NCBI GenBank assembly: GCA_037431425.1
Contig: GCA_037431425.1_4129.1
DNA: 64,000 bases
Strand: one strand, 5' to 3'
DNA from: a phage
Shown here: positions 4,823-63,642 of the stretch, piece by piece
How the letters are laid out: every line of letters starts with the position of its first letter
Numbering within the stretch: the first letter of the stretch is position 1
The notes under the pieces: generated by a model
Told to the model about the DNA's origin: nothing
The model's input: only the letters and a program-made list of their open reading frames with translations
Databases searched by the model: none
Program-made: the position numbers and the translations under genes

Positions 4823-5800
4823 ATGGCTCATCACGGCGTGTTTATGTACCCTTATAATCAGGAAGTATCATTGGGCAATTTTAATATGCCATATAGCAAT
4901 GAAAAACTAACTATATATAAAGGGGCAAATAATAATTTATCTTTTACTGTTCACAACGCTGATGGAAAGTATACTTTATTGAAAGAAAATGAATATCTTA
5001 CATTTATGATTTTTGATGTACGAAATAACACTAAACTATTCGATGTTGTTTTGGAAAAACAAGAACCAAGTTGGCTATCCGAAAGCGGTCAGGCCCGACA
5101 AACATTGGGAAATAAAAAGAAAGTATATTATGGATGTATTGTTCCAGCAGGTGTTATCCAAGATACCAGTCCTGGTTCCAAATATAGATGGAGTATCACT
5201 AAAGTAACAATGGATGGTTCACTTGTAGAACCAACACAATATCTATATACAGGTATGAACTATGAAGCATCAGCAGAGTTAATTATTTCAGACCGTGCTG
5301 TACCTGTATTTGTCCCTAGTACTGAAATATCTGTCAACCAAAATTCAGCATGGACAACTATTAAGCGTTTATATCCTGAGCCTATTGGTAATGGTATGAT
5401 TGGGGAATATGATATTCTTGCATCAACACCACTCCCTGCACAAATGCAGTTTGGGTTGGTTGATGGATTGAGCAGTATAGCAATCTATTTTGATAAATTT
5501 ATTGGTAGGATACAGCTTCAAGGGTGTTTGTGTAATGACGTACCAAATGATAATGAAAACTATAAATGGTTTATTATTAAATTAGATGGGAAGGATTATA
5601 TTGAAAATGGGATGGATGTAGAAGGATTTCCAGAAGAACTCAATGGAATTCAAGCATTTAATTTTAAAGGAAATTATATGTGGTTGAGAATTGTAGTAGC
5701 TATTCATCCTAAAACTGTCCCAGTGCCGTATGACTATGCTGCTGTGAGAAAACTGTATGACCCTTTCTTAACTGTACCTAAAATTTTGATTCGCAGGTGA
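4823..5800 (+). CDS. Hypothetical protein (possibly structural)
   Basis: ATG at 4823 preceded by GGAAGGA RBS; track ORF 4757 trimmed to this start. Confidence 0.5.
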   Translation: MAHHGVFMYPYNQEVSLGNFNMPYSNEKLTIYKGANNNLSFTVHNADGKYTLLKENEYLTFMIFDVRNNTKLFDVVLEKQEPSWLSESGQARQTLGNKKKVYYGCIVPAGVIQDTSPGSKYRWSITKVTMDGSLVEPTQYLYTGMNYEASAELIISDRAVPVFVPSTEISVNQNSAWTTIKRLYPEPIGNGMIGEYDILASTPLPAQMQFGLVDGLSSIAIYFDKFIGRIQLQGCLCNDVPNDNENYKWFIIKLDGKDYIENGMDVEGFPEELNGIQAFNFKGNYMWLRIVVAIHPKTVPVPYDYAAVRKLYDPFLTVPKILIRR

Positions 5801-5826
5801 GACAAAACCCGAAGTTGTGCTATAAT
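5798..5826 (+). promoter_or_regulatory. Sigma70-type promoter with extended -10 (TGcTATAAT)
   Basis: TATAAT at 5821-5826 preceded by TG at 5818-5819; -35-like tgagac 17 nt upstream; about 30 nt before primase start. Confidence 0.55.
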
Positions 5827-5855
5827 CATTTGTAAGAAAAGACAAGGATTAACTT

Positions 5856-6911
5856 ATGAACGCTGTACAAAACATAATGGCACAAATAATGAATGACCCA
5901 GTACCTGCAATTGGCACATGGACACATCACAACTGTCCCGCATGTGTGTTCAGAGGACATTCGAGGCCGGACATAAAGAACCGTGGTAATCATATGTTCA
6001 ATGCCGATGGTTCTGTTTCATATAACTGCTTTAACTGTAGTTTGAAAACTGGCTGGCAACCAGGAAAATATATGAGCAAAGATATGGAGTCTTTGCTCAT
6101 TTCTTTTGGTGCACAAGATAAAGAAATAGAATTAGTTAAGTTTTATATTAAAGAAATGGTTGATAGTGGTGAATATGCTACACAAGAAACCGTTGTAACA
6201 AAATTATATGACCGAATAACGGTACGTGATTTACCATCAAATGCTAAAACATTTTGGGATTGGGCTTCACTACCAGAAGATAAAATTCCGCAAGAATTTT
6301 TGAGTGTTTTACATCATGTAAATGAAAGAAATCCATATTTGTTGGATTTGGAATTATATTGGTCACCTAATAAAGAACATAAAATGTATGATAGATTTAT
6401 GATTCCTTATTACATGAATGGTAAAATAATTGGTTATACAGCGAGACATAAATTAAAAGATCCCGGAAGCACATACAGATTTATAAATCAGGTAAGTACT
6501 AATATATTGTATAATTATGATTTATTAAAAGATGACAGAATAAAAACGATTTTGGTATGTGAAGGACCGTTGGATGCAGCATTGATGGGTGGTGTATCTG
6601 CTAATAACTTTAAATTATCAAACTTGCAAATTGACGTATTAAAAGATGCCCAGAAAAAAGGGAAAAGGATAGTTATTGTTCCAGATAGAGACAAAGATGG
6701 ATTAATAACAATAGACCAAGCACTTGAAAATGGATTCAGTGTGTCTTTCCCTGATTTTGGAACAGTAAGAGAAGGTAGTACGATACGTCATATCAAAGAT
6801 TTTGAAGAGGCGTGTTCGCGATTTGGTAGGTTATTTTGCTTACAATTGATACATGATAGTATAGTAGATGAGCCATTTTATATTAAAGCTCAAACTGATA
6901 AATGGATGTAA
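5856..6911 (+). CDS. DNA primase, DnaG/T4 gp61-like (zinc-binding plus TOPRIM)
   Basis: CPAC...CFNC zinc motif near N-terminus; TOPRIM glutamate in ILVCEGPLDA and DxD in IVIVPDRDKDG. Confidence 0.8.
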   Translation: MNAVQNIMAQIMNDPVPAIGTWTHHNCPACVFRGHSRPDIKNRGNHMFNADGSVSYNCFNCSLKTGWQPGKYMSKDMESLLISFGAQDKEIELVKFYIKEMVDSGEYATQETVVTKLYDRITVRDLPSNAKTFWDWASLPEDKIPQEFLSVLHHVNERNPYLLDLELYWSPNKEHKMYDRFMIPYYMNGKIIGYTARHKLKDPGSTYRFINQVSTNILYNYDLLKDDRIKTILVCEGPLDAALMGGVSANNFKLSNLQIDVLKDAQKKGKRIVIVPDRDKDGLITIDQALENGFSVSFPDFGTVREGSTIRHIKDFEEACSRFGRLFCLQLIHDSIVDEPFYIKAQTDKWM

Positions 6912-6933
6912 TACATATAATGAGGGAACATAG

Positions 6934-8454: not shown

Positions 8455-8457
8455 TAA

Positions 8458-8730: not shown

Positions 8731-8731
8731 T

Positions 8732-9285: not shown

Positions 9286-9341
9286 TTGTGATAAATATCA
9301 TAAAGTGAGACAGAGGTCTTTTTTATTTTTATGGAGAAAAT

Positions 9342-10286: not shown

Positions 10287-10504
10287 TGAGAACAGTACTG
10301 AATGTGCATGGTCACAATACGATAGTTTCCAATGAAGAATATAAACTGTTACAAAAGATAAAAGCACGCGGTACTGTTCCAGTTGAAAAAGTAAATGAAT
10401 ATTATCAGGAACTAGCTAATAAAATGGTATCGCGTGGTGTTCTACATAAAATAGAAAATGATGATGGTACTGAATCATACCAAACTGTTAGGAGTAGTAA
10501 ATGA
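10286..10504 (+). CDS. Small hypothetical protein
   Basis: ATG at 10286 overlaps upstream stop (TAATG); track ORF 10262 uses upstream TTG. Confidence 0.45.
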   Translation: MRTVLNVHGHNTIVSNEEYKLLQKIKARGTVPVEKVNEYYQELANKMVSRGVLHKIENDDGTESYQTVRSSK

Positions 10505-11175
10505 ATTACGAATATGATCAACAATCCGTTAATCAGATGGCAGATTTATTAAGTGGTCTTAATGATATTGAAGCTGGTGAAACACATAATGCAGCAGGTG
10601 TTCCCTATAAAGCAAGTGGTGATATTGGTGCAATGACTGCAATTTTAACTTCATTAAATGAAGCTGGAATGGATTACGGTACTGATCCAGAGAAGATTCA
10701 TCCGAACGTTGTACCATACAATGCACCATTCAATGAACACATGAATGGACAACAATCTACCATTCAGCCATATAGTCAACCATCTAAGCCGAAAACTAAT
10801 TGGAGCTTAGTAGAAGAAAAAGTTCAAGGAACTAAATCTACCAAAGTGTATAGTATCAAGTGTAATCATAGTTCACAGATTATTATGAATAATATTATGA
10901 TGTATGAAGCTGCACTTACATTAGTTAATCTTTTGAATGAAGGGCGAATGTTGACAGATGCAAAACTCCTTGGTATAATTAGTTCTGGATTACAATACAC
11001 AAATGTAATTAGTGAGGCATTAAAAGCTGCTCAAAGGCGACAACGTGTTCTTAATGAATCAAAGTATGACGAAGCAAAAGAATTAGATATAATCATTGCA
11101 GAAAAGAAAGCAGAAGCTTATAAATTGAAAGAGCGTGTACTGAACTTTCTTAAAAATGAAGGGTATATTACCTGA
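10501..11175 (+). CDS. Hypothetical protein
   Basis: 224-aa ORF, ATGA overlap with upstream gene. Confidence 0.5.
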   Translation: MNYEYDQQSVNQMADLLSGLNDIEAGETHNAAGVPYKASGDIGAMTAILTSLNEAGMDYGTDPEKIHPNVVPYNAPFNEHMNGQQSTIQPYSQPSKPKTNWSLVEEKVQGTKSTKVYSIKCNHSSQIIMNNIMMYEAALTLVNLLNEGRMLTDAKLLGIISSGLQYTNVISEALKAAQRRQRVLNESKYDEAKELDIIIAEKKAEAYKLKERVLNFLKNEGYIT

Positions 11176-12923
11176 TGTTAGATGAATTGAAGAAATTCTT
11201 AAAAAGCAAAAACAAAAAAACATGGGTTAAGTTGGTAAACAATAATGAATTATATTTTAAATATGTTCGTGATTTGTTCCCAACTAAACCAATGAATGAA
11301 GCATTGTATCTTATTATGAATGACATGGCGTGTGCACCATCTGCTCCATGTGGTTCTGAATGTAAATTTATTAATGGTTCATATGATAAGTATTGTTCTA
11401 AGCCTACAAAACCAAACAAAAATCGTGATAATGGGTTTTGTGTAGTATGTAATGAGCATTGGAAGCAAAACAAACTCAAAAATACTAAACAAAAATGTCT
11501 TGATGTTTATGGTGTCGAACATCATTGGCAAAGAAATGATGTAAAAGATAAAATAAAAAGAACTAATATGAAACGATATGGTGTTGAACACAATTCACAT
11601 GTCGAACATGTTCTTGAAAAAAGAAAGGAAACCTTCATTGAAAGATATGGAGTTGAATCACCGTTATCATCTGTTGAAATTCGTGATAAGATAAAAGCAA
11701 CAAACATTGCAAAATATGGTGTTGAAAATTATGGAAGCACATGTGAATGTATCGAAAAACGAAATAAAACAATGCAAGAATTATATGGTTTTAGTAATGC
11801 ACAACATGTAAAGAAGTTTTCAAATGAATCAAAGATTACTAAATCTAAAATAAGATATGATAAAATTTTATCTATTATTAACCCTTCATATAAAGAACTG
11901 TTTGAATATGATGACTTGATAGATTCAACCAATGAAAGTAAACTTCCGTACTATTGTGAAATACACAAAGGGCTATTTTATAGTAATTATAAATATGGTA
12001 TAGTTTGTGATGTTTGCAACCCGCCTGTATATAGTTCAATACAAAATGAAATAAAAAACTTTGTATCAACATTGACTGAATGTAACATTATCATGAATGA
12101 TAGAAGTAATGGGTATGAGTATGATATATACATCCCTGAACTTCAGATAGCAATAGAAGTCAATGGAATGTATTGGCATAAAAGTGATATGGTTGATAAG
12201 TATTACCATAGAACAAAAACAATAAATTCAATAGAACGTGGGATTAGATTGATACATATCTTTGAAGACGAATGGTACTGTAAACAGGAAATTATTAAAA
12301 ATAGATTAATGAACGTTTTGCAATGTTCTAGAAAGATTTATGCCAGAAAATGTATTGTTAAAAAAATTAACACTAATATTTGTTATGATTTCTTAAACAC
12401 TAATCATATACAAGGATATACTAAATCTGGAATAAACTACGGTTTGTTTTATAATCAAGAATTGATTGCAGTAATGACGTTCGGGAAAAGTCGATATGAT
12501 AAAAAATTTGAATATGAGCTAATACGATACTGCTCACGTGGAACTGTTGTTGGTGGTGCTGGTAAATTATTGTCTGCATTTGAGCGTGAATACAAACCAT
12601 TGTCGTTGATGAGTTACGCTGACTTGAATTGGGGGTCAGGACAGTTATACATATCTCTTAACTTTGAAAATTTAGGATACACAGAACCCAAATATTTTTA
12701 TTATGATCCAAAAACAAAACAGCGTTTTTCTAGACATAAATTGAGAAAACATAAATTGATTGAAATGGGCTACGACTCATCTAAAACTGAAGAAGATATA
12801 TGCTTAGGTGAAATTGGATTGTATAAAATATACGATTCTGGTAATTGCAAATTTGCTAAATATTATTACAACACAAACATTACAGGAGATATTGAAAAAT
12901 GTCCAAATCGTACAAAAAACTAA
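11175..12923 (+). CDS. Large endonuclease-like protein: Cys-rich N-terminus, tandem YGVE repeats, Vsr-like nuclease motif
   Basis: Four to five ~27-aa repeats (YGVEHHWQRNDVKDKIKRT / YGVEHNSHVEHVLEKRKET / YGVESPLSSVEIRDKIKAT / YGVENYG...) then IAIEVNGMYWHKSD resembling the Vsr FxDGxFWH core. Confidence 0.5.
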   Translation: MLDELKKFLKSKNKKTWVKLVNNNELYFKYVRDLFPTKPMNEALYLIMNDMACAPSAPCGSECKFINGSYDKYCSKPTKPNKNRDNGFCVVCNEHWKQNKLKNTKQKCLDVYGVEHHWQRNDVKDKIKRTNMKRYGVEHNSHVEHVLEKRKETFIERYGVESPLSSVEIRDKIKATNIAKYGVENYGSTCECIEKRNKTMQELYGFSNAQHVKKFSNESKITKSKIRYDKILSIINPSYKELFEYDDLIDSTNESKLPYYCEIHKGLFYSNYKYGIVCDVCNPPVYSSIQNEIKNFVSTLTECNIIMNDRSNGYEYDIYIPELQIAIEVNGMYWHKSDMVDKYYHRTKTINSIERGIRLIHIFEDEWYCKQEIIKNRLMNVLQCSRKIYARKCIVKKINTNICYDFLNTNHIQGYTKSGINYGLFYNQELIAVMTFGKSRYDKKFEYELIRYCSRGTVVGGAGKLLSAFEREYKPLSLMSYADLNWGSGQLYISLNFENLGYTEPKYFYYDPKTKQRFSRHKLRKHKLIEMGYDSSKTEEDICLGEIGLYKIYDSGNCKFAKYYYNTNITGDIEKCPNRTKN

Positions 12924-13550: not shown

Positions 13551-13886
13551 ATGAGGTTTAGTGATCTTACTGAAGAGGCTCCTGGAAAAGATATACGCAA
13601 TATGATTACGACTATTGCGTTGTCTTTAATGTCCACTGGTAGAGAAGATGTGAATGTTCAATCTTTAATTTCTGAAATTAAAAAGAGAACCAATATAGAT
13701 GTTCCATACAATGTGATGATGGATATTTTGAATTCCCTACCTTTTGTACAGGATGCTAATTCAGATATTGTAACTTTTGTTGGAAATTCAGCAGAAGGTT
13801 CAGGTGAATCTGAACAAAATTCGGAAGAGCAAGTTGAAGATTGGGCAACAAAAGCTGCTGTGACAGCAAATAAACAAAAAAACTGA
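13551..13886 (+). CDS. Hypothetical protein
   Basis: 111-aa ORF. Confidence 0.5.
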   Translation: MRFSDLTEEAPGKDIRNMITTIALSLMSTGREDVNVQSLISEIKKRTNIDVPYNVMMDILNSLPFVQDANSDIVTFVGNSAEGSGESEQNSEEQVEDWATKAAVTANKQKN

Positions 13887-13925
13887 AACAAATAAAAATA
13901 TAATGCTATAATTAGGAGTACACGG

Positions 13926-18232: not shown

Positions 18233-20159
18233 ATGTCAGTTTTTAAAATTAATGAGAAATCTCACCTAGAAAAAAATATGTTTTTTGATGAAAGTGTTGA
18301 CATTCAACGATTTGAAAGTGTGAAATATTCAGCACTAGAGAAACTAACTGAACAACAGAAAAGTTTCTTCTGGACCCCTGGTGAAGTTGATGTATCCAAG
18401 GATAAAATTGATTTTGCCAACCTTAATGATTCAGAGAAGCACATTTTTACCTCTAACTTGAAACGTCAAATTCTTCTTGATTCTGTACAAGGTCGTGGTC
18501 CAAACCTAATGCTACTACCATATGCATCACTACCTGAATTAGAGAACTTTATTGAGACATGGGCATTCTTTGAAGGTGCTATTCATAGTAAATCATATAC
18601 TCATATTATTCGTAACATTTACCCTAATCCATCTGAAGTGTTTGATACTATGTTGGACATTCCAGAAATCACAGATTGTGCGGCTGATGTGTCTAAGTAT
18701 TACGATGAACTGGATGAGCTAGGTACATGGTATAAAGTACTGGGTGAAGGAACTCACAATGTCAATGGTAAAACTATTGTTGTTGATATGTACGAACTTA
18801 AAAAGAAAATGTGGTTGTGTCTGAATAGTATTAACATCCTTGAGGGTGTGCGTTTTTACGCTAGTTTTGCCTGTTCGTGGGCCTACGCCGAAAACAAGCT
18901 TATGGAAGGTAATGCCAAAATTATTCGTCTAATTTGCCGTTAACTCCATGGCGGCTTTGTACAGTAATGTACATTGAAAAACCTTATATATCGGTGAACA
19001 TCTTAACATGTAATGATGAAGACAATACCGAGATTTAGATAAATAACCCCCATAAATGAGATGAAAATATACATTTGGGGATAGTTATGTGTGATAATAT
19101 TTTTTACGTCTATGTTTGGTATAACCCAATTGACCAGATGCCATTTTATGTTGGTAAAGGTAAGGGGAATCGAGCGTATGATGTACCTGAACATTCTAGA
19201 AATACATATTTTATTCTAAAGTATAATAAAATATTAGAACTTGGAATGGAGCCATATGTTATAATTGAAAAAATTCACTTAGTTAAGACAACGCACTATC
19301 ATATGAATTAGAACTGATTTGAAGTATGGAAAGAACTATATGAAAAATATAAAGATTCCATTCCTAATATCAAAAATTCAGGTTTGAACAAGTATAAGTT
19401 GTCATTTGAAGATAAATTGGATATCATTGATGCTATTCATAATCGTGGTGAAACACAACTAAAGGAAATTGCACTACGATATGGATTGAAGGAGACTATG
19501 ATAGTGTCTATAAATCTTAAACGACAATGGAAAACTATATGGGAATATTATCTATCTAAATCCTAACGACTATCGAAACCACGTAGAAATGCGGAAGGGA
19601 GTAGAGTACTCTCAAGTGAGAGGAAACGTAAGGAATCCAGAAACTGGATTATGATATAGTCTGAACTACTATAGAAATATAGTGCAGTACTTCTAGCTGC
19701 CGAAGTACGGGGGAAGCTTAACGAACTTCCTTGAACATAATGGATGAAAATTTACACTTAGCAGCAACACAAATGATTCTCCGACTACTCAAGAAAGAAG
19801 ATCTAGACTTTGCAAAAATCGCAGAAGAGTGCTATGATGAAGTACTGGAAATGTTTATGTCTGCTATTCGCCAAGAAGAAGCTTGGGCAGATTTCCTCTT
19901 TAAAGATGGTTCTATTATTGGATTGAACTCTGAAATTCTTAAACAGTATGTTCGCTGGATTGGATCTAAGCGTATGACGGCACTTGGTATCAAATGTCCA
20001 TATACTGTATCCAAGAGTAACCCACTACCGTGGACTGAACACTGGGTAAGTGGTAGTTCTGTACAGGTAGCACCACAAGAAACTGAAATCAGTTCTTATA
20101 TCATTGGTGGTATTGTGAATGATATTCAAGAAGATACATTCACACCATTCAAACTATAA
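18233..20159 (+). CDS. nrdB: Ribonucleotide reductase small subunit, interrupted by a group I intron (exons 18233-18940 and 19743-20159)
   Basis: Exon 1 ends ...NAKIIRLICR then TAA; the ORF at 19731 continues DENLHLAATQ...EISSYIIG...FTPFKL, a typical NrdB C-terminus; joined product about 375 aa. Confidence 0.85.
18941..19742 (+). mobile_element. Group I self-splicing intron in nrdB
   Basis: Exon 1 ends in U (18940); gcggc at 18951-18955 can pair with exon gccgu as P1; GACUA (19568-19572) and gauauaguc (19653-19661) resemble P7 strands; intron ends in G (19742); carries a GIY-YIG ORF. Confidence 0.75.
19087..19311 (+). CDS. GIY-YIG homing endonuclease catalytic domain, intron-encoded (possibly truncated)
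   Basis: IFYVYVWYNPIDQMPFYVGKGKGNRAYD matches GIY...YIG...R; ORF stops after about 75 aa; ORF 19384-19566 in another frame may be its displaced C-terminal part. Confidence 0.6.
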   Translation: MCDNIFYVYVWYNPIDQMPFYVGKGKGNRAYDVPEHSRNTYFILKYNKILELGMEPYVIIEKIHLVKTTHYHMN

Positions 20160-20206: not shown

Positions 20207-21810
<1,604 letters not shown>

Positions 21811-23316: not shown

Positions 23317-26009
<2,693 letters not shown>

Positions 26010-26095
26010 AAAAAACTAAATGCTATACATAAATATTTTTTGATTTTTAATAATAAATAATCAAGAGTGTTTTGTATTATGGAGAAGAATATACA

Positions 26096-26691: not shown

Positions 26692-26886
26692 ATGACTAAC
26701 AAAACATTTTATGATCGTATTATTGAAGACAAGGGAGTTTTTGATAAGGTAGTTTATGACTTAGAACTTATGATCAAAGACGCACCGAATCCAAGAGTAC
26801 GAACCCAAGCAGAGTTTGCAAAAACTTATCTTGTTCAAGTTCAAGCAATTTGTGAAGCAATCAAAAAACATAATGATAGTGCTTGA
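26692..26886 (+). CDS. Small hypothetical protein
   Basis: 64-aa ORF. Confidence 0.45.
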   Translation: MTNKTFYDRIIEDKGVFDKVVYDLELMIKDAPNPRVRTQAEFAKTYLVQVQAICEAIKKHNDSA

Positions 26887-26911
26887 CAGAACAAAAGTTC
26901 TATCCTATAAT
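26883..26911 (+). promoter_or_regulatory. Consensus sigma70 promoter (TTGACA-17-TATAAT)
   Basis: TTGACA 26883-26888, 17-nt spacer, TATAAT 26906-26911; about 45 nt upstream of the IF3-like gene. Confidence 0.7.
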
Positions 26912-28089: not shown

Positions 28090-28102
28090 ATTATAAAGGG
28101 GT

Positions 28103-31128
<3,026 letters not shown>

Positions 31129-31923: not shown

Positions 31924-31951
31924 ATCGGGGCATATTGTCCCGATATTTTTT
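31924..31951 (+). terminator. Rho-independent terminator
   Basis: atcggggc / gtcccgat stem (one G-U pair), then T6. Confidence 0.6.
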
Positions 31952-32013
31952 GAGACAAAAATCACATTGGTGATACAATGTTTTGTGACAAAGAGACATG
32001 ATAAGGAATTCAA

Positions 32014-35451: not shown

Positions 35452-35480
35452 GGAAGACCCATTGGGTCTTCCTTGTCCTT
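35452..35480 (+). terminator. Rho-independent terminator after topoisomerase genes
   Basis: ggaagaccc / gggtcttcc stem, att loop, T-rich tail. Confidence 0.65.
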
Positions 35481-35482: not shown

Positions 35483-35490
35483 TATAAATA
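35483..35490 (+). promoter_or_regulatory. T4-type late promoter motif (TATAAATA)
   Basis: Exact TATAAATA about 40 nt upstream of ATG 35529. Confidence 0.4.
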
Positions 35491-38235: not shown

Positions 38236-38713
38236 TGTGAAATGTAATCTTAATGCAGTTGTTTATGCAATCAACTGTGGTGCAGATATCCAGTACTTAC
38301 AATTACAGGAAATCGATGAACCTGAAAGGTTAAAATTCAATGATAACTGTAAAAAATTTGGTTTAGAGCAACGTATGCTGGATTATACCATTGAACATGA
38401 TAAAAATCATGAACTTTGGCGTTATGATCCAGTATATGATAATATAAATCTACGTGACTTTTTTTTACAAAAGTGTACCTCAGATGAAGCACGAACACGT
38501 GTTGAGTATGAGCTTGAATTATATGAATATTATAATATGACAAAACTATTAAGATGTATGATCTGGCTCGTTGATTACATGGAAGAACATGAAATCTTTT
38601 GGGGTCTAGGGCGTGGAAGCTCTGTTGCATCATATTGTTTATACTTGATTGGATTACATATGGTAGATTCATTGAAGTATGACCTTGATGTGAACGAATT
38701 TTTGAAATGGTAG
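38195..38713 (+). CDS. Hypothetical protein
   Basis: 172-aa ORF; start uncertain (overlaps upstream gene by 41 nt). Confidence 0.45.
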   Translation: MKVQGNRFISPNGDVKCNLNAVVYAINCGADIQYLQLQEIDEPERLKFNDNCKKFGLEQRMLDYTIEHDKNHELWRYDPVYDNINLRDFFLQKCTSDEARTRVEYELELYEYYNMTKLLRCMIWLVDYMEEHEIFWGLGRGSSVASYCLYLIGLHMVDSLKYDLDVNEFLKW

Positions 38714-38755
38714 ATAAACATGTGATATAATGTCTATTGTAGTTATTATATCACA
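38702..38755 (+). promoter_or_regulatory. Sigma70-like promoter inside an 11-bp perfect inverted repeat
   Basis: tgtgatataat (38721-38731) and attatatcaca (38745-38755) separated by 13 nt; the left arm contains TGaTATAAT. Confidence 0.5.
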
Positions 38756-41401: not shown

Positions 41402-41426
41402 AAGGGGTTTGTTTCAAACCCCTTTT
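41402..41426 (+). terminator. Rho-independent terminator
   Basis: ggggtttg / caaacccc stem, then T tract. Confidence 0.7.
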
Positions 41427-41487
41427 GTTGTATTTTAAAAGTAGTAAATAGTATTATATGTGCTAGTTTTTGAGGATAATATAAAAT

Positions 41488-42731: not shown

Positions 42732-43546
42732 GAATTTTAAATATGCTTAAATCTCTTCACGAAACGACGAAATTGGTTCAGGATGAAAAATATCGTCGAA
42801 GTATTACAAAAGATTTAGCATGTCGAATGTATATGCGTAGATTCGAAATTTCTCGAATTGGTAAAAAATGGGATAATATAAATCGTGAAGACATTGACCC
42901 AGATGCTATTTTTAAAGCATACATGGCAAGAAAAGTTTTCATAAATGAAAAAACTTTTTATATAGATAGTGATAGGGTTCTAGAAGATAAATTCACTAAA
43001 GGTTTATGGAATATATGGTGTATTGAAATATTTGGAGAAGTTCTCCCTGAACCACCTGTACCTAAAACGTATAAAGAATTAAAAAATATTTTTGATAATG
43101 AACACATACATTCAAACTTCTCATTATATGACACTGTATCAGAAGCTGTATTTTATGGTGAGTTACATGGTCATAACAAATATTTTGATAGTATGGTTAG
43201 TTTTGATTTGTTTTGTCACTTACCAGGTGTGTCTAGCTGGACCAGTGATCAACACCGAGCTAGTAAGGTTGATAAACGTAAATTCTCTGCTCAAAGATTT
43301 ATGCAAGTTGCAATGAGTATGTATAAACTTGATTATCTTGGTTGTCCAGAACCATATACTCATTTCTGGAAAGAAAAAGCACAAAAATGCTTAAACTATT
43401 GTATAGTTCGTTTGATGGACACATACATTCTTAAGTTTAGGAATGCAACTGTATATGACATGCCAGAACCACCAGAGAATGAAAAGTATCCACCAGTAAA
43501 AACATTTGTATGGTACAGGGATAAAAGTAACAAAAGGATGCACTAA
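42728..43546 (+). CDS. Hypothetical protein
   Basis: 272-aa ORF, ATGA overlap. Confidence 0.5.
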   Translation: MRILNMLKSLHETTKLVQDEKYRRSITKDLACRMYMRRFEISRIGKKWDNINREDIDPDAIFKAYMARKVFINEKTFYIDSDRVLEDKFTKGLWNIWCIEIFGEVLPEPPVPKTYKELKNIFDNEHIHSNFSLYDTVSEAVFYGELHGHNKYFDSMVSFDLFCHLPGVSSWTSDQHRASKVDKRKFSAQRFMQVAMSMYKLDYLGCPEPYTHFWKEKAQKCLNYCIVRLMDTYILKFRNATVYDMPEPPENEKYPPVKTFVWYRDKSNKRMH

Positions 43547-43561
43547 TGTGTATCCTTTTTT
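43535..43561 (+). terminator. Rho-independent terminator overlapping stop codon
   Basis: aggatgcac / gtgtatcct stem (one G-U pair), taat loop containing the TAA stop, then T5. Confidence 0.6.
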
Positions 43562-43572: not shown

Positions 43573-43601
43573 TTGACATATGGTGTACCAGTATGTATAA
43601 T
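43573..43601 (+). promoter_or_regulatory. Consensus sigma70 promoter (TTGACA-17-TATAAT)
   Basis: TTGACA 43573-43578, 17-nt spacer, TATAAT 43596-43601. Confidence 0.7.
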
Positions 43602-44777: not shown

Positions 44778-44806
44778 TTGACTTGGATATGTGTTGAACG
44801 TATAAT
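44778..44806 (+). promoter_or_regulatory. Consensus sigma70 promoter (TTGACT-17-TATAAT)
   Basis: TTGACT 44778-44783, 17-nt spacer, TATAAT 44801-44806. Confidence 0.7.
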
Positions 44807-45994: not shown

Positions 45995-46023
45995 TTGACA
46001 CATGGGTGCGTTTTCGATATAAT
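45995..46023 (+). promoter_or_regulatory. Consensus sigma70 promoter (TTGACA-17-TATAAT)
   Basis: TTGACA 45995-46000, 17-nt spacer, TATAAT 46018-46023. Confidence 0.7.
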
Positions 46024-46049
46024 ATTATTATTGAAAACGCACTCTTTTT
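46006..46049 (+). terminator. Hairpin terminator interleaved with the promoter
   Basis: gtgcgttttc (46006-46015) / gaaaacgcac (46033-46042) 10-bp stem with 17-nt loop containing the -10, then tcttttt. Confidence 0.5.
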
Positions 46050-46073
46050 AATATACAGATAAGGAACCAATAC

Positions 46074-50934: not shown

Positions 50935-51098
50935 GAAAAGCATGGACAATATTCGTAATACCTATTATAATGTTGTTATTGGTAATCACGGTTCCACAAG
51001 TATACGTTGTTGCTTTGAATGTGGTGGAAATTATTCTTCTTGCAATTCACTGCCTTGTGTGTTATTACTACGTAAAATGGGATGATAAAAAAATATGA
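50931..51098 (+). CDS. Small hydrophobic protein (55 aa)
   Basis: Untracked ORF, ATGA overlaps at both ends; strongly hydrophobic. Confidence 0.35.
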   Translation: MRKAWTIFVIPIIMLLLVITVPQVYVVALNVVEIILLAIHCLVCYYYVKWDDKKI

Positions 51099-51517: not shown

Positions 51518-51849
51518 ACAATGACAACAAAGAATTTATAGTACGTTGTAGTTGTGGCGATAATACTGAACATTGTGTTCACATTGCACAATTTGACTTG
51601 ACTCAAGAAGATGGAGATGGTAAACTTGGTCAATGTTTGGTGAGTATGCGTTTGAATCCTTTCTTAAAATGGCACAAACGTGTATTGGTTGGATTGAAGT
51701 ATATTTTTGGTGTAAACGATTTTCAATATAAAGAAGCAATGATTGATGTTGACATTCTGAAAGAAGTTGTGTTACAATTAGAAGACACCCGACCCGATGA
51801 GGTAAAGAAAGAAGAAAGAGATAAACGTAGTGATGTGAAGGTTTTATGA
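51514..51849 (+). CDS. Hypothetical protein
   Basis: 111-aa ORF, ATGA overlap. Confidence 0.5.
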   Translation: MNNDNKEFIVRCSCGDNTEHCVHIAQFDLTQEDGDGKLGQCLVSMRLNPFLKWHKRVLVGLKYIFGVNDFQYKEAMIDVDILKEVVLQLEDTRPDEVKKEERDKRSDVKVL

Positions 51850-53241: not shown

Positions 53242-53634
53242 ATGAAAAACATTGGCTCTTCTATACAAAAAGACCTTTCATTTTACCTTAATAAATTCAG
53301 AAGTATAAATGGTAATAAATTTAATAGTATCTATCAGTTCACACATAAAGAATATATTACTATTGATCCCTTTTCAAAAAAACTGATGTATGTTAATGAT
53401 AATAATTATAGTGTTAAATTATCATTCGATATTGTGTTAGATAAATTAACATTTACGGAATACACTACCAATAAAACTTCATTTTTACACAAGTATAATA
53501 GAAAGGTATATAATCATATTTCTAGTTATTTAAATGAAGATTATCACTTTCAACAATCTACAATAGAAAAAGTATTATTCAGTACTGAAGAATTAAAAGA
53601 ATTATATTATTGGTATGAGAAATTTACATCTTGA
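53242..53634 (+). CDS. FQxS-motif paralogue family member
   Basis: C-terminal NEDYHFQQSTIEKV. Confidence 0.55.
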   Translation: MKNIGSSIQKDLSFYLNKFRSINGNKFNSIYQFTHKEYITIDPFSKKLMYVNDNNYSVKLSFDIVLDKLTFTEYTTNKTSFLHKYNRKVYNHISSYLNEDYHFQQSTIEKVLFSTEELKELYYWYEKFTS

Positions 53635-53689
53635 CATTATGGTGGTTTCATCTTACAATACAAGATAATGATGCGTTGAGGACAAATTC

Positions 53690-55346: not shown

Positions 55347-55795
55347 ATCCTGGACATTTTTTTCATTTACTGGACATTACACCTATACCCGATTTAATCA
55401 GCGAGACTAATCATTATCGTGATATTGGAATTGTATCAATGGAATATGATTCACCTGACTTTAAATGTTACGTAACATACGATCAGGTGGCTTATGAGTC
55501 AGAGCCTGCGATTAAAAAACCATCATATATTTTTGTGTTCATATATAATGATTATAGTGGTGATGTACTGAATGATGTTCATATTGACACATTTGAAATA
55601 TGTGGTAATATTATATCAGATGATTCAGCATCCACATTTGATTTGGAATTAAACAGTACTGAAGAGTCACTTTTTCAGTTGAGTACTATATGTGATACTA
55701 TATTAACTCTAGATGACATTGAGAAATTTAAAGAACAGCTTGACGCAGTTCGTGAGATGTTCTATAATCATTATCCAGAAGTAGAGTTCAATTAA
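55340..55795 (+). CDS. FQxS-motif paralogue family member
   Basis: C-terminal TEESLFQLSTICDT. Confidence 0.55.
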   Translation: MLNPGHFFHLLDITPIPDLISETNHYRDIGIVSMEYDSPDFKCYVTYDQVAYESEPAIKKPSYIFVFIYNDYSGDVLNDVHIDTFEICGNIISDDSASTFDLELNSTEESLFQLSTICDTILTLDDIEKFKEQLDAVREMFYNHYPEVEFN

Positions 55796-56148: not shown

Positions 56149-56400
56149 ATGAGTGAACATAGTGCGGTGCTTAAAAAGATTTTAAAGGAAATTGATGGTG
56201 AGTTTAATGTCACAGAAGAAGAATATCAGCATTGGAAGAAAGATTTCGAACAACTAACCGAGTATGATAAAGTGTTCAATATGATTGGCGTAATTAGCCA
56301 GTACTTACTTGGTGGAGGACGTGCAAGTGCTTCAATTCTGGCATCTGCAATCATCTGTACATCACGATGGTGTGATGAAAAAAGTTTGGAAGATTTCTAA
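56149..56400 (+). CDS. Hypothetical protein
   Basis: ATG 56149 with GGAG upstream. Confidence 0.45.
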   Translation: MSEHSAVLKKILKEIDGEFNVTEEEYQHWKKDFEQLTEYDKVFNMIGVISQYLLGGGRASASILASAIICTSRWCDEKSLEDF

Positions 56401-56415
56401 ATAAGATGCTATAAT
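56386..56415 (+). promoter_or_regulatory. Sigma70-type promoter with extended -10 (TGcTATAAT)
   Basis: TATAAT 56410-56415 with TG 56407-56408; TTGGAA about 18 nt upstream. Confidence 0.5.
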
Positions 56416-56452: not shown

Positions 56453-58333
56453 ATGAAACCTATCCGAGTACTATCTCTTTTTAATGGGATGAGTGTAGGA
56501 TACATGGCATTAAAAGATGCTGGTATCCCTGTTGAAAAATATTATTCATCCGAAATTGACAAATTTGCTATAGCTGAATCCCAAGCTAACTTCCCCGATA
56601 TCATCCAATTGGGTGATGTAACTAGATGGAGAGAATGGGATATTGAATGGGATAAGATAGATCTACTGATGGGTGGTTTTCCATGCTTCCCAGCAGGAAC
56701 TATGATAATGACAAATAAAGGTCATAAAGATATAAAAGATATAAAAATTGGTGATATGGTTCTTACACACACTGGACAGTACCAAAAAGTATTGAGTACT
56801 GGTGTTAAAAAGGCTCCCACTCGTATTATTACAGGTCAAGGTCACCTTCCAATTGAATGTACCGATAATCATCCATTTTGGAGTAGGGAACGTCTAGCCA
56901 ATAAATGGAATAATCAACACCGAAGATATGATTCTGTGTTTTCTGAACCGCAATGGGTAAATGCTATAGATCTTACTAAACAAAGTTATATTTGTAATGT
57001 TAAAAATATTACACATAATACAGTAAGTGATAAAGATGAAAAATATTGGTATTTTGTTGGTCGTTTTATGGGTGATGGATGTGCTAGTGTATCTAATAAC
57101 AAATACAGTATTACTATTGTAGATTCATTAGATAAAGTTGATGAATTGAAAAAATGTTTTGATGATTTTGGATACAAATACACATTAGCTATTAAAGATA
57201 ATCATGTAAGATGTGATATATATAGCAAAAAGCTTTATGATGAATTAATATGTATTGGGCATAAATCACAAAACAAATGTTTACCACCTGAAATATTCAA
57301 TGAAACTATCAATAACAAAGAAGCATTTATTAAAGGATACATGGATGCAGATGGTTGTGAGGATAAACACAATAAAAAATACAAATTTACCACCACAAGT
57401 TATAAAATAGTTCTTGGTATGCAACAGTTAATCTTAGATACTTATCAACGTCATTGTACTATTAGTCAAACTGTTCCAAAAACAAAAAAATATATAAAAA
57501 ATAAGTTGGTTAATCAGCTTCCGTATTGGAATGTTCATTTTAGCTATAATAAAATTAAAAGAGATGATGTAATATATGATGAAATTTATATATGGAATCG
57601 TGGTGTAAAAAGTAATGTACCAACCGGAGAATGGAAAACCGTTTACAATATTGAAGTTGCAGTAGATAACACATATACAGCGAACAATATTGTAGTTCAT
57701 AACTGCCAAGCGTGGTCAGTTGCAGGTAAACAGGGTGGAATAAATGATCCTCGTGGTATGTTATTCCATACAATGGTTGATATTTACCAGCACATAAAAA
57801 GTCTCAATCCAGACTTGAAAGTACTGTTCGAGAATGTTAAAATGAAAGAAGATTTCAAGCAATACATTAATAGTGTTCTTGAGATGACACCAGTACTGAT
57901 AAATTCCCAGCATTATACGCCTCACTTCAGGCAGAGATATTACTGGTACAGTACTGATAAACTTTTTATACCACCTGCATTATCAAATGCACCTAAACTT
58001 CAAGATATTATTGAAGATGGTTGGTACACTGACAGAACCGCTTCGTACTGTATAGATGCTAACTATTTTAAGGGTGGGGATTGTAACCAGTACTTTAATA
58101 AATCAAGAAGACAAATTGTTTTCAAAGAACCTGATATCGATAGGGATTTCCTTCTTGAACATGGTAAGCGAAATGTGGACTATCGTCATTTAACAGTGCA
58201 AGAGTGTTGCATGTTGCAAGGAATTGATGTAAACTACTTCAAAGTTAGTAGTTCAACACAAGCATACAAAATGCTTGGGAATGGATGGACTATGCCAGTT
58301 ATATCACACTTACTACGAGATATATTCTTTTGA
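56453..58333 (+). CDS. DNA (cytosine-5)-methyltransferase interrupted by an intein
   Basis: Motif I LSLFNGMSVG; motif IV split as GGFP | intein | CQAWSVAGK; motif VI FENV; GNGWTMPV near C-terminus; host protein about 286 aa without the intein. Confidence 0.8.
   Translation: MKPIRVLSLFNGMSVGYMALKDAGIPVEKYYSSEIDKFAIAESQANFPDIIQLGDVTRWREWDIEWDKIDLLMGGFPCFPAGTMIMTNKGHKDIKDIKIGDMVLTHTGQYQKVLSTGVKKAPTRIITGQGHLPIECTDNHPFWSRERLANKWNNQHRRYDSVFSEPQWVNAIDLTKQSYICNVKNITHNTVSDKDEKYWYFVGRFMGDGCASVSNNKYSITIVDSLDKVDELKKCFDDFGYKYTLAIKDNHVRCDIYSKKLYDELICIGHKSQNKCLPPEIFNETINNKEAFIKGYMDADGCEDKHNKKYKFTTTSYKIVLGMQQLILDTYQRHCTISQTVPKTKKYIKNKLVNQLPYWNVHFSYNKIKRDDVIYDEIYIWNRGVKSNVPTGEWKTVYNIEVAVDNTYTANNIVVHNCQAWSVAGKQGGINDPRGMLFHTMVDIYQHIKSLNPDLKVLFENVKMKEDFKQYINSVLEMTPVLINSQHYTPHFRQRYYWYSTDKLFIPPALSNAPKLQDIIEDGWYTDRTASYCIDANYFKGGDCNQYFNKSRRQIVFKEPDIDRDFLLEHGKRNVDYRHLTVQECCMLQGIDVNYFKVSSSTQAYKMLGNGWTMPVISHLLRDIFF
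56684..57703 (+). mobile_element. Intein with LAGLIDADG homing endonuclease domain (340 aa)
   Basis: Starts CFPAGTMIMT (block A), ends VVHN followed by extein Cys; two LAGLIDADG-like motifs FVGRFMGDGC and IKGYMDADGC. Confidence 0.8.
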
Positions 58334-58815: not shown

Positions 58816-58821
58816 TTATAA

Positions 58822-58845
58822 ATCCACGCAATGCGTGGATTTTTT
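58822..58845 (+). terminator. Rho-independent terminator
   Basis: atccacgc / gcgtggat palindrome, then T5-6. Confidence 0.7.
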
Positions 58846-58858
58846 CATAGGTGTATAT

Positions 58859-60206: not shown

Positions 60207-60646
60207 CAGTACTGCACAGATTGAAGAAGGTTAAGCATCCAGTTGTATATGAGGACTGGAAACGACAAAAGTTACTGGGTGATTTTTATTACCCAAAATC
60301 TAAAGTTCTTGCGAATTCAAGATGTACATATATCAAACATAACGATAAAGATACAGTATTTGTTGAAATGGGGTTCAATCCATCAAATACAATGTTCAGT
60401 ACTAACCAAACATTTTACAAATTTCATATCAAAAAAGATGTATTTTCTATTAAAATTATAAAACATTTAGTTGAAGATCTGGTATACAGTGAAGAAAGAG
60501 TTCCTTTATCATTAGTGGATATTCCTTATAATAATTTAGAGGAAATGTACTTCCAACAGTTGACAGTACAAGAAAACTTTGGTATGATAGGACTTCAAGA
60601 GTTAGAGATGATTAAGCAAATTCGTGATATCTACTTTAAGGAGTAA
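60203..60646 (+). CDS. FQxS-motif paralogue family member (variant FQQLT)
   Basis: C-terminal LEEMYFQQLTVQEN. Confidence 0.5.
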   Translation: MTVLHRLKKVKHPVVYEDWKRQKLLGDFYYPKSKVLANSRCTYIKHNDKDTVFVEMGFNPSNTMFSTNQTFYKFHIKKDVFSIKIIKHLVEDLVYSEERVPLSLVDIPYNNLEEMYFQQLTVQENFGMIGLQELEMIKQIRDIYFKE

Positions 60647-61176
60647 CTATGCCAGTACGTAACAGTACTTCACGCTTTACGCTTCAACAGAAAGCAGATC
60701 TTTTGAATATGGCAAATAAAGATTCTAATTATTACTATCTAGTACTCGGTGGTTCAGTTGAAAAGATTGACCTACGTGAGTGTGTGAAATAACAAAGGGG
60801 ATAAAATGAGCCTACGTGAATCATGGGAACAATTTAAAGAAGAGATTGGTTATCGTGGTGTTAAGATTGAACAAATCAATCGAACCGAAAGTATCAAAGC
60901 AAGTTCTAATGGTACTACATATGATCGTTATGATGAAAAGTATGGTTTACATTCTAAATCAAAGGATACTGAGTAATGGTGTATATTAATATTTTTACTG
61001 GTATTATGCGTAAGTTTGTTAATGGTATTGGATATGTATCCAATGATAATGGTAGTACATGGGTAAAAAATAATACGCCCGAATCTTTAGTGAAAAATCT
61101 TCCGTATTATAAAGCTTGACCCCTGAAAATGGAGTATGTATAATACTCCTATATTAATTAAATGAGGATATACGAA

Positions 61177-61749: not shown

Positions 61750-61933
61750 GTTTATTTTTGAGGTACTTATTGCATTCATCGTATGTACGATATCTATTGC
61801 TATTTCTTTAATCCCAGTCATCATTTACCAAGTCTATGGTGGCACAGACCAAACAATTGATATGCTTCTTCGTTGTTTTGGTTTCTGTATATGGTTGATT
61901 ATGTTTATGTATTATATGCATATTGAGGACTGA
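61736..61933 (+). CDS. Small membrane protein
   Basis: 65 aa, two hydrophobic segments. Confidence 0.45.
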   Translation: MEAIKFIFEVLIAFIVCTISIAISLIPVIIYQVYGGTDQTIDMLLRCFGFCIWLIMFMYYMHIED

Positions 61934-61935
61934 TT

Positions 61936-62766: not shown

Positions 62767-63053
62767 AAATTTTAGAAGTTTTACTTGAAAAAGATGCATC
62801 TGGTACTCTTTATGTTGGTAATGATTTCAGTCCTGATCCAATTGATATGATGCAGCGTATTCAATCACTGACCCAATCAATTTCAGTTAAACAACCTTTC
62901 CTAAAAGAATTGGAAATTCATTGCGATAAAGACATGGAGCAGCATGATAATGTTATTTCTGATATCAAAAATCTGTTGACAAAGAACGGATATGTGGAGT
63001 ATAATCCTCCTATCGTAATCGTTATCCCTGGCTTCATGAGAGGAACATTGTAA
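62763..63053 (+). CDS. Hypothetical protein
   Basis: 96-aa ORF, ATGA overlap. Confidence 0.5.
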   Translation: MKILEVLLEKDASGTLYVGNDFSPDPIDMMQRIQSLTQSISVKQPFLKELEIHCDKDMEQHDNVISDIKNLLTKNGYVEYNPPIVIVIPGFMRGTL

Positions 63054-63322
63054 TGACGAAAGAAGAAATGAAATCTCGCTTAAGCGAACTGAAGAAAGAA
63101 CGCAAACTAGTCCGTTTGGACTGGGACATTCTTAACAAAAAAGATGAGCAATCATATGCTAATTGGAGTTCTGATAAAGTTCGCAATGAACGTAGTAAAG
63201 AAGACAACAAACAGTTTATGGCACTGTCCAAGCGTTTATCTGCATTAAATAGTGAAATTACAGGTCTACAGAAAGAAATTATTTCGATTTTACGAGATGA
63301 GATTAAATCACTATATGAATAA
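63053..63322 (+). CDS. Coiled-coil hypothetical protein
   Basis: 89-aa ORF. Confidence 0.45.
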   Translation: MTKEEMKSRLSELKKERKLVRLDWDILNKKDEQSYANWSSDKVRNERSKEDNKQFMALSKRLSALNSEITGLQKEIISILRDEIKSLYE

Positions 63323-63611
63323 ACATGAAGTATTAGTATTAGATAATAAATTCTATGTACCAAATAATGATAGTACTGAAACATATTATCTAATTAATAA
63401 AATTATGACTGAAACTAATACTTGTTGTCGTCAAATCCCAGGAAAATATGAGTTCAGTCAGTCTATTGGCTATTATCGTTATAATCCATTGGAATCATTT
63501 ACAATTGACGTGTTGAAAGTTATTGACATTCTTGTACAGAATGGGTATAATGAAAAACATGTAAATAACTCAGAATTACCAGTTTCAAAAATCGTTATTT
63601 CTAATAATTAG
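63315..63611 (+). CDS. Hypothetical protein
   Basis: ATG 63315 just before upstream stop; track ORF 63252 trimmed. Confidence 0.45.
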   Translation: MNKHEVLVLDNKFYVPNNDSTETYYLINKIMTETNTCCRQIPGKYEFSQSIGYYRYNPLESFTIDVLKVIDILVQNGYNEKHVNNSELPVSKIVISNN

Positions 63612-63613
63612 AG

Positions 63614-63642
63614 TTGGATAATAACAGATGATGTGATATAAT
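63614..63642 (+). promoter_or_regulatory. Sigma70-type promoter (TTGGAT-17-TATAAT) with gatgtgatataatgt core
   Basis: TTGGAT 63614-63619, TATAAT 63637-63642; core shared with the promoter at 38721. Confidence 0.55.

Follow-up and report, generated by a model that had tools for sequence, protein, structure and literature searches.

Three candidate promoter classes in a 64-kb segment of an Asteriusvirus jumbo phage suggest a T4-like transcription programme with a boxed extended -10 middle class

We examined the promoters of a 64,000-nucleotide (nt) stretch of phage DNA (contig GCA_037431425.1_4129.1 of the NCBI GenBank assembly GCA_037431425.1), called the window below, which is part of a 348-kb jumbo phage of Escherichia coli from the genus Asteriusvirus, in the 121Q/PBECO4 group. 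Three kinds of promoter-like sequence occur in it: sigma70-type promoters at or near consensus (class 1), extended -10 promoters with a conserved box at a fixed distance upstream (class 2), and T4-type TAAATA motifs (class 3). A three-tier programme resembling that of T4, run by the host RNA polymerase core, is in our judgement the probable and best explanation of this layout. In such a programme, class 1 (~14-15 sites in the window) would be read by the unmodified host E-sigma70 on DNA entry. Class 2 would be a middle class, staying or turning active once the -35-dependent early promoters are shut off, with regions 2 and 3 of the host sigma70 reading the extended -10 and a phage-specified factor acting at the box. 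The class 3 motifs, (n)TAAATA or TATAAATA, would be read by a gp55-like late sigma factor. For the class 2 step itself, sigma70 on the extended -10 together with a phage factor at the box, we put the chances close to even, if anything just below.

The window has a G+C content of 33% and nearly all of its genes lie on the + strand. It shares 97-99% identity with Escherichia phage ph0011 (OP557969.1, Asteriusvirus), in which its first position corresponds to coordinate ~232,586, and 87-88% with phages 121Q, PBECO4 and phAPEC6. The gene set was obtained by carrying over the ph0011 gene calls with BLAST, and comprises 98 genes, leaving only 2,890 non-coding bases (4.5%). Among the encoded proteins are a primase, helicases, ribonucleotide reductase, DHFR, RNase H, an IF-3-like protein, both topoisomerase II subunits, a clamp loader and a TelA-like protein; from ~47 kb on follows a long series of small open reading frames (ORFs) to which no function is assigned. 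Conservation was measured by mapping each base of the window to 121Q (87.8% identity overall, 88.5% in intergenic DNA), and the genome-wide scans of ph0011 cover its positions 1-344,000.

Class 1 sites were sought as TTGACA-16..18-TATAAT and scored by matches out of 12, against a null of 200 dinucleotide-preserving shuffles. The + strand of the window holds six perfect sites, with 0.105 expected from the shuffles (~57-fold enrichment), and 14 eleven-of-twelve sites, with 3.3 expected; the - strand holds no perfect site and one eleven-of-twelve site (0.065 and 3.06 expected). Looser matches (at least 9 of 12; the 9-10 class) showed no excess over shuffled sequence in the window, so only the top tier of the scan is meaningful. 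Seven of the 20 strong + strand matches fall in the non-coding 4.5%, and six more lie at most 130 nt before the next start codon. Six others (2041, 16458, 22500, 26687, 37399 and 62024) were judged to be chance matches, since they are far from start codons and about as numerous as expected. There are 15 candidate class 1 sites scoring 10-12 of 12, all on the coding strand (Table 1). In eight, the -10 is intergenic and the next start codon follows 31-83 nt downstream; six are 42-196 nt before the next start, and the last, at 63523, is 174 nt upstream of one, in tandem with 63614. An earlier note on this sequence had named five of the 15, and each was found where it had been placed (26883, 43573 and 45995, 12/12; 44778, 11/12; 63614, 10/12). 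These five are real, and the list was short by ten, three of them perfect (10951, 62976 and 63523) and seven scoring 11/12 (38702, 50943, 51749, 53631, 55740, 60560 and 61116).

The hexamers of these sites are kept in 121Q better than their surroundings. Taken together, the 15 sites retain 176/180 hexamer bases, compared with 214/258 spacer bases and 382/450 bases in the 15-nt flanks (Fisher p=4.6e-8). The eight sites with an intergenic -10 retain 93/96 hexamer and 107/137 spacer bases (p=3e-5), and the seven coding sites 83/84 and 107/121 (p=0.005). On sequence comparison, 43573 and 44778 read as textbook cases of kept hexamers and a drifted spacer: the former keeps 11/12 hexamer bases with 7/17 spacer bases changed, and the latter 12/12 with 8/17 changed. 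Since conservation is specific to the hexamers and the spacers have diverged, the sites are not simple repeats. The hexamers of 10951 are also identical in 121Q, but this site is coding and its conservation is therefore less informative. The weakest of the set appears to be 50943, whose -35 is TGGAAA in 121Q, and the class of 38702 is ambiguous, because its TGAAATG box fits the class 2 register too.

A genome-wide scan, as proposed in the earlier note, was made on ph0011: its + strand carries 31 perfect class 1 sites and its - strand none, and eleven-of-twelve sites number 74 and 8, respectively. Their density is highest at 4-23 kb and 299-336 kb, where small ORFs have promoters of their own, and the window spans the beginning of this right-hand cluster. 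An A-rich tract is often present just upstream of the -35. Judging from gene content and the analogy with T4, class 1 promoters are probably early, serving mostly small function-unassigned and host-interaction-type genes from 43.5 kb on.

The element shared by class 2 is a TGRRACA box at -35..-29, followed by N13 and TGnTATAAT (tgTGnTATAAT). Among all TGnTAnAAT sites of the window, RGRACAAAM-N10-TGnTAyAAT recurs in identical register at three intergenic positions (5818, 20401 and 31971) and at one intragenic position (24319); with one mismatch allowed, this pattern has six matches in the window, compared with 0.26 expected. In ph0011, TGnTAYAAT combined with at least 6/7 of T-G-R-R-A-C-R at -35..-29 occurs 22 times on the + strand and never on the - strand, where an estimate from base composition gives a chance level of ~1 per strand. 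The consensus of these sites is aaaa..TGgGAcAaa....aaat.tgTGaTATAAT. Five sites of the window (5798, 13884, 20381, 31951 and 56387) match the box at 6-7 of its 7 positions, in the register tabulated for phage CBB (Table S6 of the study cited below). We would count four strong class 2 sites in the window, with 2-4 weaker ones. The four TGCTATAAT sites that had been noticed before (5818, 13904, 20401 and 56407) were rightly grouped, as 13904 (TGAAACA) and 56407 (TGGAAGA) also fit the class 2 register; the group was incomplete, the site at 31951-31979 having been overlooked. The element proposed to unite it, ccngaa, did not hold up: its GAA lies 4 nt before TGC at 5810 and 3 nt before it at 20395, and it varies among six Asteriusviruses.

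Footprinting indicates that both parts of class 2 are under selection. Between the window and 121Q, six class 2 sites are identical at 48/48 positions of the extended -10 and 39/42 of the box, compared with 68/84 of the intervening bases and 154/180 of the flanks. Upstream of the primase gene, an alignment of six Asteriusviruses shows TGAGACA and GTGnTATAAT to be invariant, and the 12 nt between them to vary freely. Where the box does change relative to 121Q, it remains within TGRRACA (TGAAACA to TGAGACA, TAGGACA to TGGAACA). Conservation at 24299 is uninformative, because that site is coding.

The genes behind class 2 sites form a coherent set. Outside the window, class 2 sites of ph0011 precede the DNA polymerase operon, the SSB/RecA/UvsY operon, and the genes for a 5'-3' exonuclease, ClpP, a Clp ATPase (ClpX) and a NUDIX hydrolase. 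A tRNA-Ser gene of the tRNA cluster starts 11 nt after a class 2 -10, and the gene for the gp55-like late sigma factor is also preceded by a class 2 site. This replication and late-sigma gene set does not overlap with the class 1 genes, and by analogy it is probably a middle-type regulon rather than an early one. An unbiased 7-mer enrichment over all ph0011 upstream regions yielded no fourth promoter class relevant to the window; it recovered terminator tails, the Shine-Dalgarno sequence, the three classes, and spacer words of the early-promoter cassettes at the left end.

The third class is T4-like. Six intergenic TAAATA motifs in the window (4776+, 4808-, 9292, 26054, 35485 and 41445) end 37-45 nt before a start codon, and five of them precede orthologs of 121Q virion or structural proteins (gp18, gp24, gp45, gp54 and gp62); none of the virion-protein orthologs in the window is preceded by a class 1 or class 2 site. 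The window had been thought to hold a single late-type motif. The TATAAATA copy at 35483 is indeed present, and is the only intergenic one among five exact copies (four on the + strand, one on the -). In ph0011, 9/20 copies of TATAAATA fall in the 7.5% of the genome that is non-coding, all nine at most 48 nt upstream of a start codon on the same strand, and one of the genes so preceded is that of the major capsid protein. Among the 7-mers upstream of ph0011 genes, ATAAATA is exceeded in enrichment only by the terminator tails.

The same three classes, with the same box register and the same kinds of genes, have been predicted in related phages. In phage CBB (vB_PcaM_CBB, Mimasvirus, a Rak2-like jumbo phage), MEME analysis predicted three sets of promoters (Buttimer et al., 2017; PMC5259590). 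The first consists of 18 RpoD-like promoters, which have an A-rich, UP-like element and cluster upstream of small early-type ORFs. The second, called "divergent RpoD-like" and found in GAP32 too, has 18 members in which TGAAACG replaces the -35; most of them precede DNA-synthesis genes, and one precedes the gene of the gp55-like sigma. The third comprises 35 ATAAATA, (A/C)TAAATA, motifs before structural genes. "Promoter 1" in its Table S6 reads TGAAACG-N13-TGnTATAAT, with the box at -35..-29 (PMC5259590). One CBB promoter, Porf_324, ends at 236780, 33 nt before the start of topoisomerase II at 236813, and is the positional ortholog of the window site at 31951-31979 (35 nt). The preferred box differs, being TGAAACG in CBB and TG(G/A)GACA in Asteriusvirus, with TGAAACA and TGGAACA bridging the two. 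The topoisomerase II loci of RaK2 and Atu_ph07 lack the exact class 2 box, and conservation of the box can therefore be claimed only for Asteriusvirus, CBB and GAP32. The layout described here was thus largely to be expected from these predictions. What is added is the extension of a class so far predicted, by MEME, only in CBB and GAP32 to a genus infecting E. coli, the evidence from footprinting, and a transcription map of 64 kb of an Asteriusvirus genome, in which ~15 host-type, 5-8 boxed extended -10 and 6 late promoters are tied to terminators and genes. A comparable published map for Asteriusvirus appears to be absent: no promoter analysis or transcriptome of the genus was found in the searchable literature, the RaK2 genome paper contains no promoter or sigma analysis, and in the Asteriusvirus papers (Sharanji, fEgEco12) a sigma factor is the only related item mentioned.

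Several observations support the dependence of the clade on the host RNA polymerase. No phage RNA polymerase is present in the ph0011 annotation. Group 2 jumbo phages lack an RNA polymerase; their sigma factors are of the RpoD-like and the minimal kind, they have an ortholog of gp33, and a subset of them also encodes AsiA (Iyer et al., PMC7824862). The growth of a relative, the Pseudomonas jumbo phage PA5oct, is sensitive to rifampicin, and 32 TTGAC/TATAATA promoters of that phage lie near transcript starts mapped by RNA-seq (PMC7318152). PA5oct thus resembles the present phage in its dependence on the host enzyme and its sigma70-like consensus promoters; it differs in host and genus, and a boxed extended -10 class is not reported there.

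Two sigma factor genes are found in ph0011, the first of them outside the window. A gp55-like sigma of 279 amino acids is encoded at 193825-194664 (phrog_12791, "sigma factor for late transcription", E=5e-154; phrog_234, E=3e-17). The gene at 313766-314731 encodes an RpoD-like sigma with Pfam regions 2 and 3 and a sub-threshold region 4. The RpoD-like gene occurs throughout the clade (Asteriusvirus, RaK2, GAP32 and CBB) and diverges fast, with 58% identity within Asteriusvirus and 35% to CBB. The phage protein and its orthologs from Ecwhy_1, RaK2, CBB and GAP32 were aligned with the C-terminal half of E. coli sigma70 (homology, E=1e-18). All clades have S, T or A in place of W433 and W434, and V in place of E458; around the equivalents of Q437 and T440 Asteriusvirus has IYMTVY and CBB and GAP32 have IRQHMY. 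These -12-reading positions differ between clades while the class 2 -10 is identical, which favours the host sigma70 as its reader. Ecwhy_1 was considered as a phage that keeps class 2 and has no such sigma, and was rejected, as tblastn reveals the gene (57.8% identity, annotated as misc_feature). The location of the gp55-like gene behind a class 2 promoter, and of the RpoD-like gene in a class 1 region, suggests an early to middle to late relay, in which the link between class 2 and the late sigma gene would connect host sigma70 transcription, through a middle stage, to late expression.

In T4, sigma70 serves the early promoters, MotA and AsiA carry out sigma appropriation at the middle promoters, and gp55, gp33 and gp45 act at the late ones. 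The present phage resembles T4 in having no phage RNA polymerase, strong sigma70-type early promoters, a class of replication-gene promoters that combines an excellent -10 with a non-sigma70 element near -30/-35, a late motif (TATAAATA, core TAAATA at ~-10, no -35) and an encoded gp55-like sigma. It differs in the additional RpoD-like sigma, which T4 does not have, in the absence of a detectable AsiA homolog from ph0011, and in the class 2 box itself: TGgGAcAaa at -35..-27 is unlike the MotA box (a/t)(a/t)(a/t)TGCTT(t/c)A centred at -30, and contains no TGCTT. Since the box is unrelated to the MotA box and AsiA has no detectable homolog, any appropriation-like system here would be non-homologous. 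Extended -10 promoters can function without -35 contacts, and the class 2 tgTGnTATAAT is an optimal extended -10 for E. coli; generic promoters of this type, unlike class 2, have no strongly conserved box at a fixed distance upstream. In our view the box does not simply represent a weak -35, because the "TT" of the -35 is replaced by purines, a T-G upstream is conserved, and the class is tightly linked to replication and the late sigma. More broadly, and with slightly less than even confidence, we propose that the TGRRACA box (-35..-27) marks a clade-wide "middle" regulon of Rak2-like phages, comprising replication, recombination, tRNAs and the late sigma gene. It would be served by a phage factor unlike MotA/AsiA, either a new sigma70-appropriation system or the RpoD-like sigma without its tryptophan dyad. 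If this is true, the TGRRACA regulon would be an independent early-to-middle switch in phages that use the host RNA polymerase. Since the phage infects E. coli, standard tools suffice for a direct test of the relay.

As regards the earlier suggestion of early expression driven by the host RNA polymerase from distinct promoter classes, the classes are distinct in sequence and plausibly differ in timing. The motifs behave as real promoters, because they are strand-specific, lie before genes and carry a phylogenetic footprint, and host dependence stands as well. The part that does not stand is the timing of the second class, which is probably not early. Moreover, class 2 may not depend on the host sigma70 alone, because a non-sigma70 box is conserved and the phage encodes an RpoD-like sigma of its own.

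A number of points weigh against the three-tier reading with a phage factor at the class 2 box. The labels early, middle and late are inferred from the analogy with T4 and from gene content. Conservation of the seven coding class 1 sites is confounded by protein constraint. The class 2 promoter at 13884-13912 ends only 14 nt before a start codon, which would imply either a nearly leaderless mRNA or a wrongly annotated exonuclease start. The factor proposed to act at the box has no candidate gene: a tblastn search with T4 AsiA against positions 1-344,000 of ph0011 gave a best E of 0.08, which leaves room for a very remote homolog, and MotA is absent from the ph0011 annotation, no search having been aimed at it. 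An AsiA database search gave, among the matches listed, genome records that were all ~160-177 kb T4-like phages. The RpoD-like sigma, for its part, is assigned no promoter class in the three-class scheme. Finally, GACA of the sigma70 -35 is still found in the box, with a 16-nt spacer, which would also suit plain sigma70 with a weakened -35.

The last point leads to an alternative that we consider unlikely, though it deserves attention, namely that the host sigma70 reads class 1 and class 2 alike as ordinary promoters, one kind -35-dependent and the other extended -10 with a degenerate -35, and that both work as soon as infection begins and need no phage factor. The class 2 box would then be a sub-optimal -35 (RGGACA, 16-nt spacer) tuned for lower strength. 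The retained GACA lies at a legal spacing, the class 2 -10 is the exact E. coli optimum TRTGnTATAAT (its TRTGn motif was reportedly described by Mitchell and co-workers in 2003), and no AsiA homolog was found in ph0011. The topoisomerase II sites of RaK2 (TTGAACA..TATAAT) and Atu_ph07 (TTGACT-18-TGgCACAAT) are also more sigma70-like. What this alternative does not account for is that the most informative -35 positions, TT, are systematically purines, and that a T-G two bases upstream and an AA tail are conserved instead. Nor would it predict a box as conserved as the -10 across six phages in which the adjacent bases drift, or the tie of the class to a coherent replication and late-sigma regulon separate from the class 1 genes.

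We regard as rather improbable a second alternative, in which class 2 is read wholly by the phage RpoD-like sigma, made from an early class 1 operon, giving a chain from host sigma70 to phage sigma to gp55-like sigma. The gene is indeed present throughout the clade that has class 2, it lies in an early-type region, the closest promoter ahead of it being of class 1 (312197 in ph0011), and the box is located where region 4 of a sigma factor would make contact. The diverged region 4 helix, moreover, differs between Asteriusvirus and CBB, as does the preferred box (TGRGACA and TGAAACG, respectively). The missing residues argue against it, since it is with W433, W434 and E458 that sigma70 melts and reads the -10 and recognizes the TG. 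Q437 and T440 vary between clades, whereas the class 2 -10 is invariant and equal to the sigma70 optimum, and the Pfam match of region 4 is below threshold.

The motifs could instead have arisen by chance in an AT-rich genome, or be left over from duplications, and have no promoter function, as the chance-level frequency of 9-10/12 matches and ~6 strong matches deep within genes might suggest; this is hardly credible in view of the ~57-fold enrichment of perfect sites with absolute strand bias, their placement relative to genes and terminators, and hexamers conserved beside diverged spacers.

Table 1. Candidate promoters of the window, by class. For class 1, the score is the number of matches to TTGACA and TATAAT out of 12.
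Class	Positions	Strand	Motif	Score	Context
1	10951..10979	+	TTGACA-17-(TG)TATAAT	12/12	in 3' part of gene 10501-11175; 196 nt before ORF 11175-12923
1	26883..26911	+	TTGACA-17-TATAAT	12/12	intergenic, 45 nt before IF-3-like gene 26956; 12/12 kept in 121Q
1 (ambiguous)	38702..38731	+	TTGAAA-18-TGaTATAAT, extended -10	11/12	47 nt before gene 38778 and GroES-like gene
1	43573..43601	+	TTGACA-17-TATAAT	12/12	intergenic, right after terminator 43532-43559, 42 nt before gene 43643
1	44778..44806	+	TTGACT-17-TATAAT	11/12	49 nt before TelA-like gene 44855
1	45995..46023	+	TTGACA-17-TATAAT	12/12	51 nt before gene 46074; -10 inside terminator hairpin of upstream gene
1 (candidate)	50943..50971	+	TGGACA-17-TATAAT	11/12	inside small ORF, 124 nt before gene 51095
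1	51749..51778	+	TTGACA-18-TGtTACAAT	11/12	68 nt before gene 51846
1	53631..53659	+	TTGACA-17-TACAAT	11/12	31 nt before gene 53690; hexamers kept, spacer and flanks diverged in 121Q
1	55740..55768	+	TTGACG-17-TATAAT	11/12	42 nt before gene 55810
1	60560..60588	+	TTGACA-17-TGgTATGAT	11/12	61 nt before gene 60649
1	61116..61144	+	TTGACC-17-TATAAT (TTGACA in 121Q and ph0011)	11/12	33 nt before gene 61177; -10 in small hairpin
1	62976..63005	+	TTGACA-18-TATAAT	12/12	48 nt before gene 63053
1	63523..63551	+	TTGACA-17-TATAAT	12/12	close to end of gene 63315-63611; tandem with 63614
1	63614..63642	+	TTGGAT-17-TGaTATAAT, weak -35 and extended -10	10/12	intergenic, 83 nt before gene 63725
2	5798..5826	+	TGAGACA-N13-TGCTATAAT		30 nt before primase gene 5856; box overlaps stop codon of gene 4823-5800
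2	13884..13912	+	TGAAACA-N13-TGCTATAAT		14 nt before exonuclease gene 13926; box TGAGACA in 121Q
2	20381..20409	+	TAGGACA-N13-TGCTATAAT		31 nt before gene 20440, operon with MazG-like pyrophosphohydrolase; box TGGAACA in 121Q
2	31951..31979	+	TGAGACA-N13-TGATACAAT		after terminator 31924-31944; 35 nt before topoisomerase II large subunit gene 32014
2 (moderate box match)	56387..56415	+	TGGAAGA-N13-TGCTATAAT		38 nt before cytosine methyltransferase gene 56453
2-like (weak, uncertain)	24299..24327	+	CAGGACA-N13-TGATATAAT		inside RNase H gene, 342 nt before helicase 24669
Extended -10 (uncertain)	947..975	+	TGATATAAT		"box" CGGGATA part of terminator-like hairpin; 35 nt before gene 1010
3 (late-type)	4775..4781	+	cATAAATA		ends 42 nt before gene 4823, 121Q gp18 ortholog (virion structural); identical in 121Q
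3 (late-type)	4803..4809	-	cATAAATA		38 nt before - strand gene 4412-4765; inverted pair with 4775 site
3 (late-type)	9291..9297	+	gATAAATA		ends 45 nt before gene 9342, 121Q gp24 ortholog (virion structural protein)
3 (late-type)	26053..26059	+	aATAAATA		ends 37 nt before gene 26096, 121Q gp45 ortholog (structural protein)
3 (late promoter)	35483..35490	+	TATAAATA		after terminator 35452-35472; ends 39 nt before gene 35529, 121Q gp54 ortholog (virion structural protein)
3 (late-type)	41444..41450	+	GTAAATA		after terminator 41402-41424; ends 38 nt before gene 41488, 121Q gp62 ortholog (virion structural)

Terminators and promoters are closely packed in the window. A terminator directly precedes the promoter at 31924/31951, 35452/35483, 41402/41444 and 43532/43573, and class 1 sites that lie just after the preceding terminator, or are interlaced with it, would define short independent transcription units. 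The most intimate overlap is at 45995, where the terminator of the TelA-like gene (46004-46050) consists of a very stable hairpin at 46004-46044 (16 bp; -22.1 kcal/mol, z=-9.2) and the run UCUUUUU, and the -10 lies within the hairpin. Transcripts reading through from upstream would end there, and those begun at the promoter would lack the left arm of the hairpin. Smaller overlaps of this kind are found at 61131-61149 (hairpin, at the 61116 promoter) and at 38721-38755, where the -10 of 38702 lies in a 12-bp inverted repeat. In ph0011, the promoters at 322899, 331930, 335334 and 335905 have their -35 within a terminator stem (aaGGGTTGACttcgGTCAGCCCtttt-TGyTATAAT).

Some individual sites show further peculiarities. 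Atypically, the predicted start site of 13884-13912 does not precede the AGGAG Shine-Dalgarno sequence but coincides with it or lies beyond it. A hairpin with a T-run at 63676-63696 lies ~27 nt past the predicted start of the 63614 promoter and before gene 63725; its fold is no stabler than shuffled sequence (z=0.05), and it could be a leader attenuator or give rise to a short RNA of ~45 nt. In the 57-bp divergent intergenic region 4766-4822, two TTCCATAAATA motifs are inverted relative to each other, at 4775 (+) and 4809 (-), and would be face-to-face late promoters with transcripts overlapping at their 5' ends. At 5-24 kb and 300-330 kb of ph0011, early-promoter cassettes with AGTACT are repeated (~19 copies of aaaaaGTACTTGCA-N17-GTATAAT and about a dozen of TTGACAaagtat..AGTACTGTATAATagtttACAT), and the window has none; the conserved AGTACT adjoining the -35 or the -10 could be an operator.

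The window also differs from its relatives by several insertions. The nrdB gene (18233-20159) is split by an 802-bp insert at 18941-19742 that is present in neither ph0011 nor 121Q. A search of the entire window with Rfam yielded no RNA families at the gathering threshold; the insert contains a full-length sub-threshold match to the group I intron family RF00028 at 19501-19684 (34.5 bits against a gathering threshold of 50, E=6.5e-7), and is probably a group I intron, as in the nrdB of T4. An insertion of ~930 bp at 28095-29022, likewise not in ph0011 or 121Q, holds an ORF at 28245-29033 (262 amino acids, weak DUF723/DUF2726 matches), which may be a free-standing homing endonuclease. The ORF at 11175-12923 (582 amino acids), 196 nt downstream of the 10951 promoter, has DUF7487 and a weak REase_MTES_1575-like match, and is present in ph0011 and not in 121Q. 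The C5 cytosine DNA methyltransferase gene at 56453-58333 encodes 626 amino acids, compared with 286 in 121Q, and its extra segment, at ~56687-57703, contains Hint and LAGLIDADG domains, which indicates an intein with a homing endonuclease.

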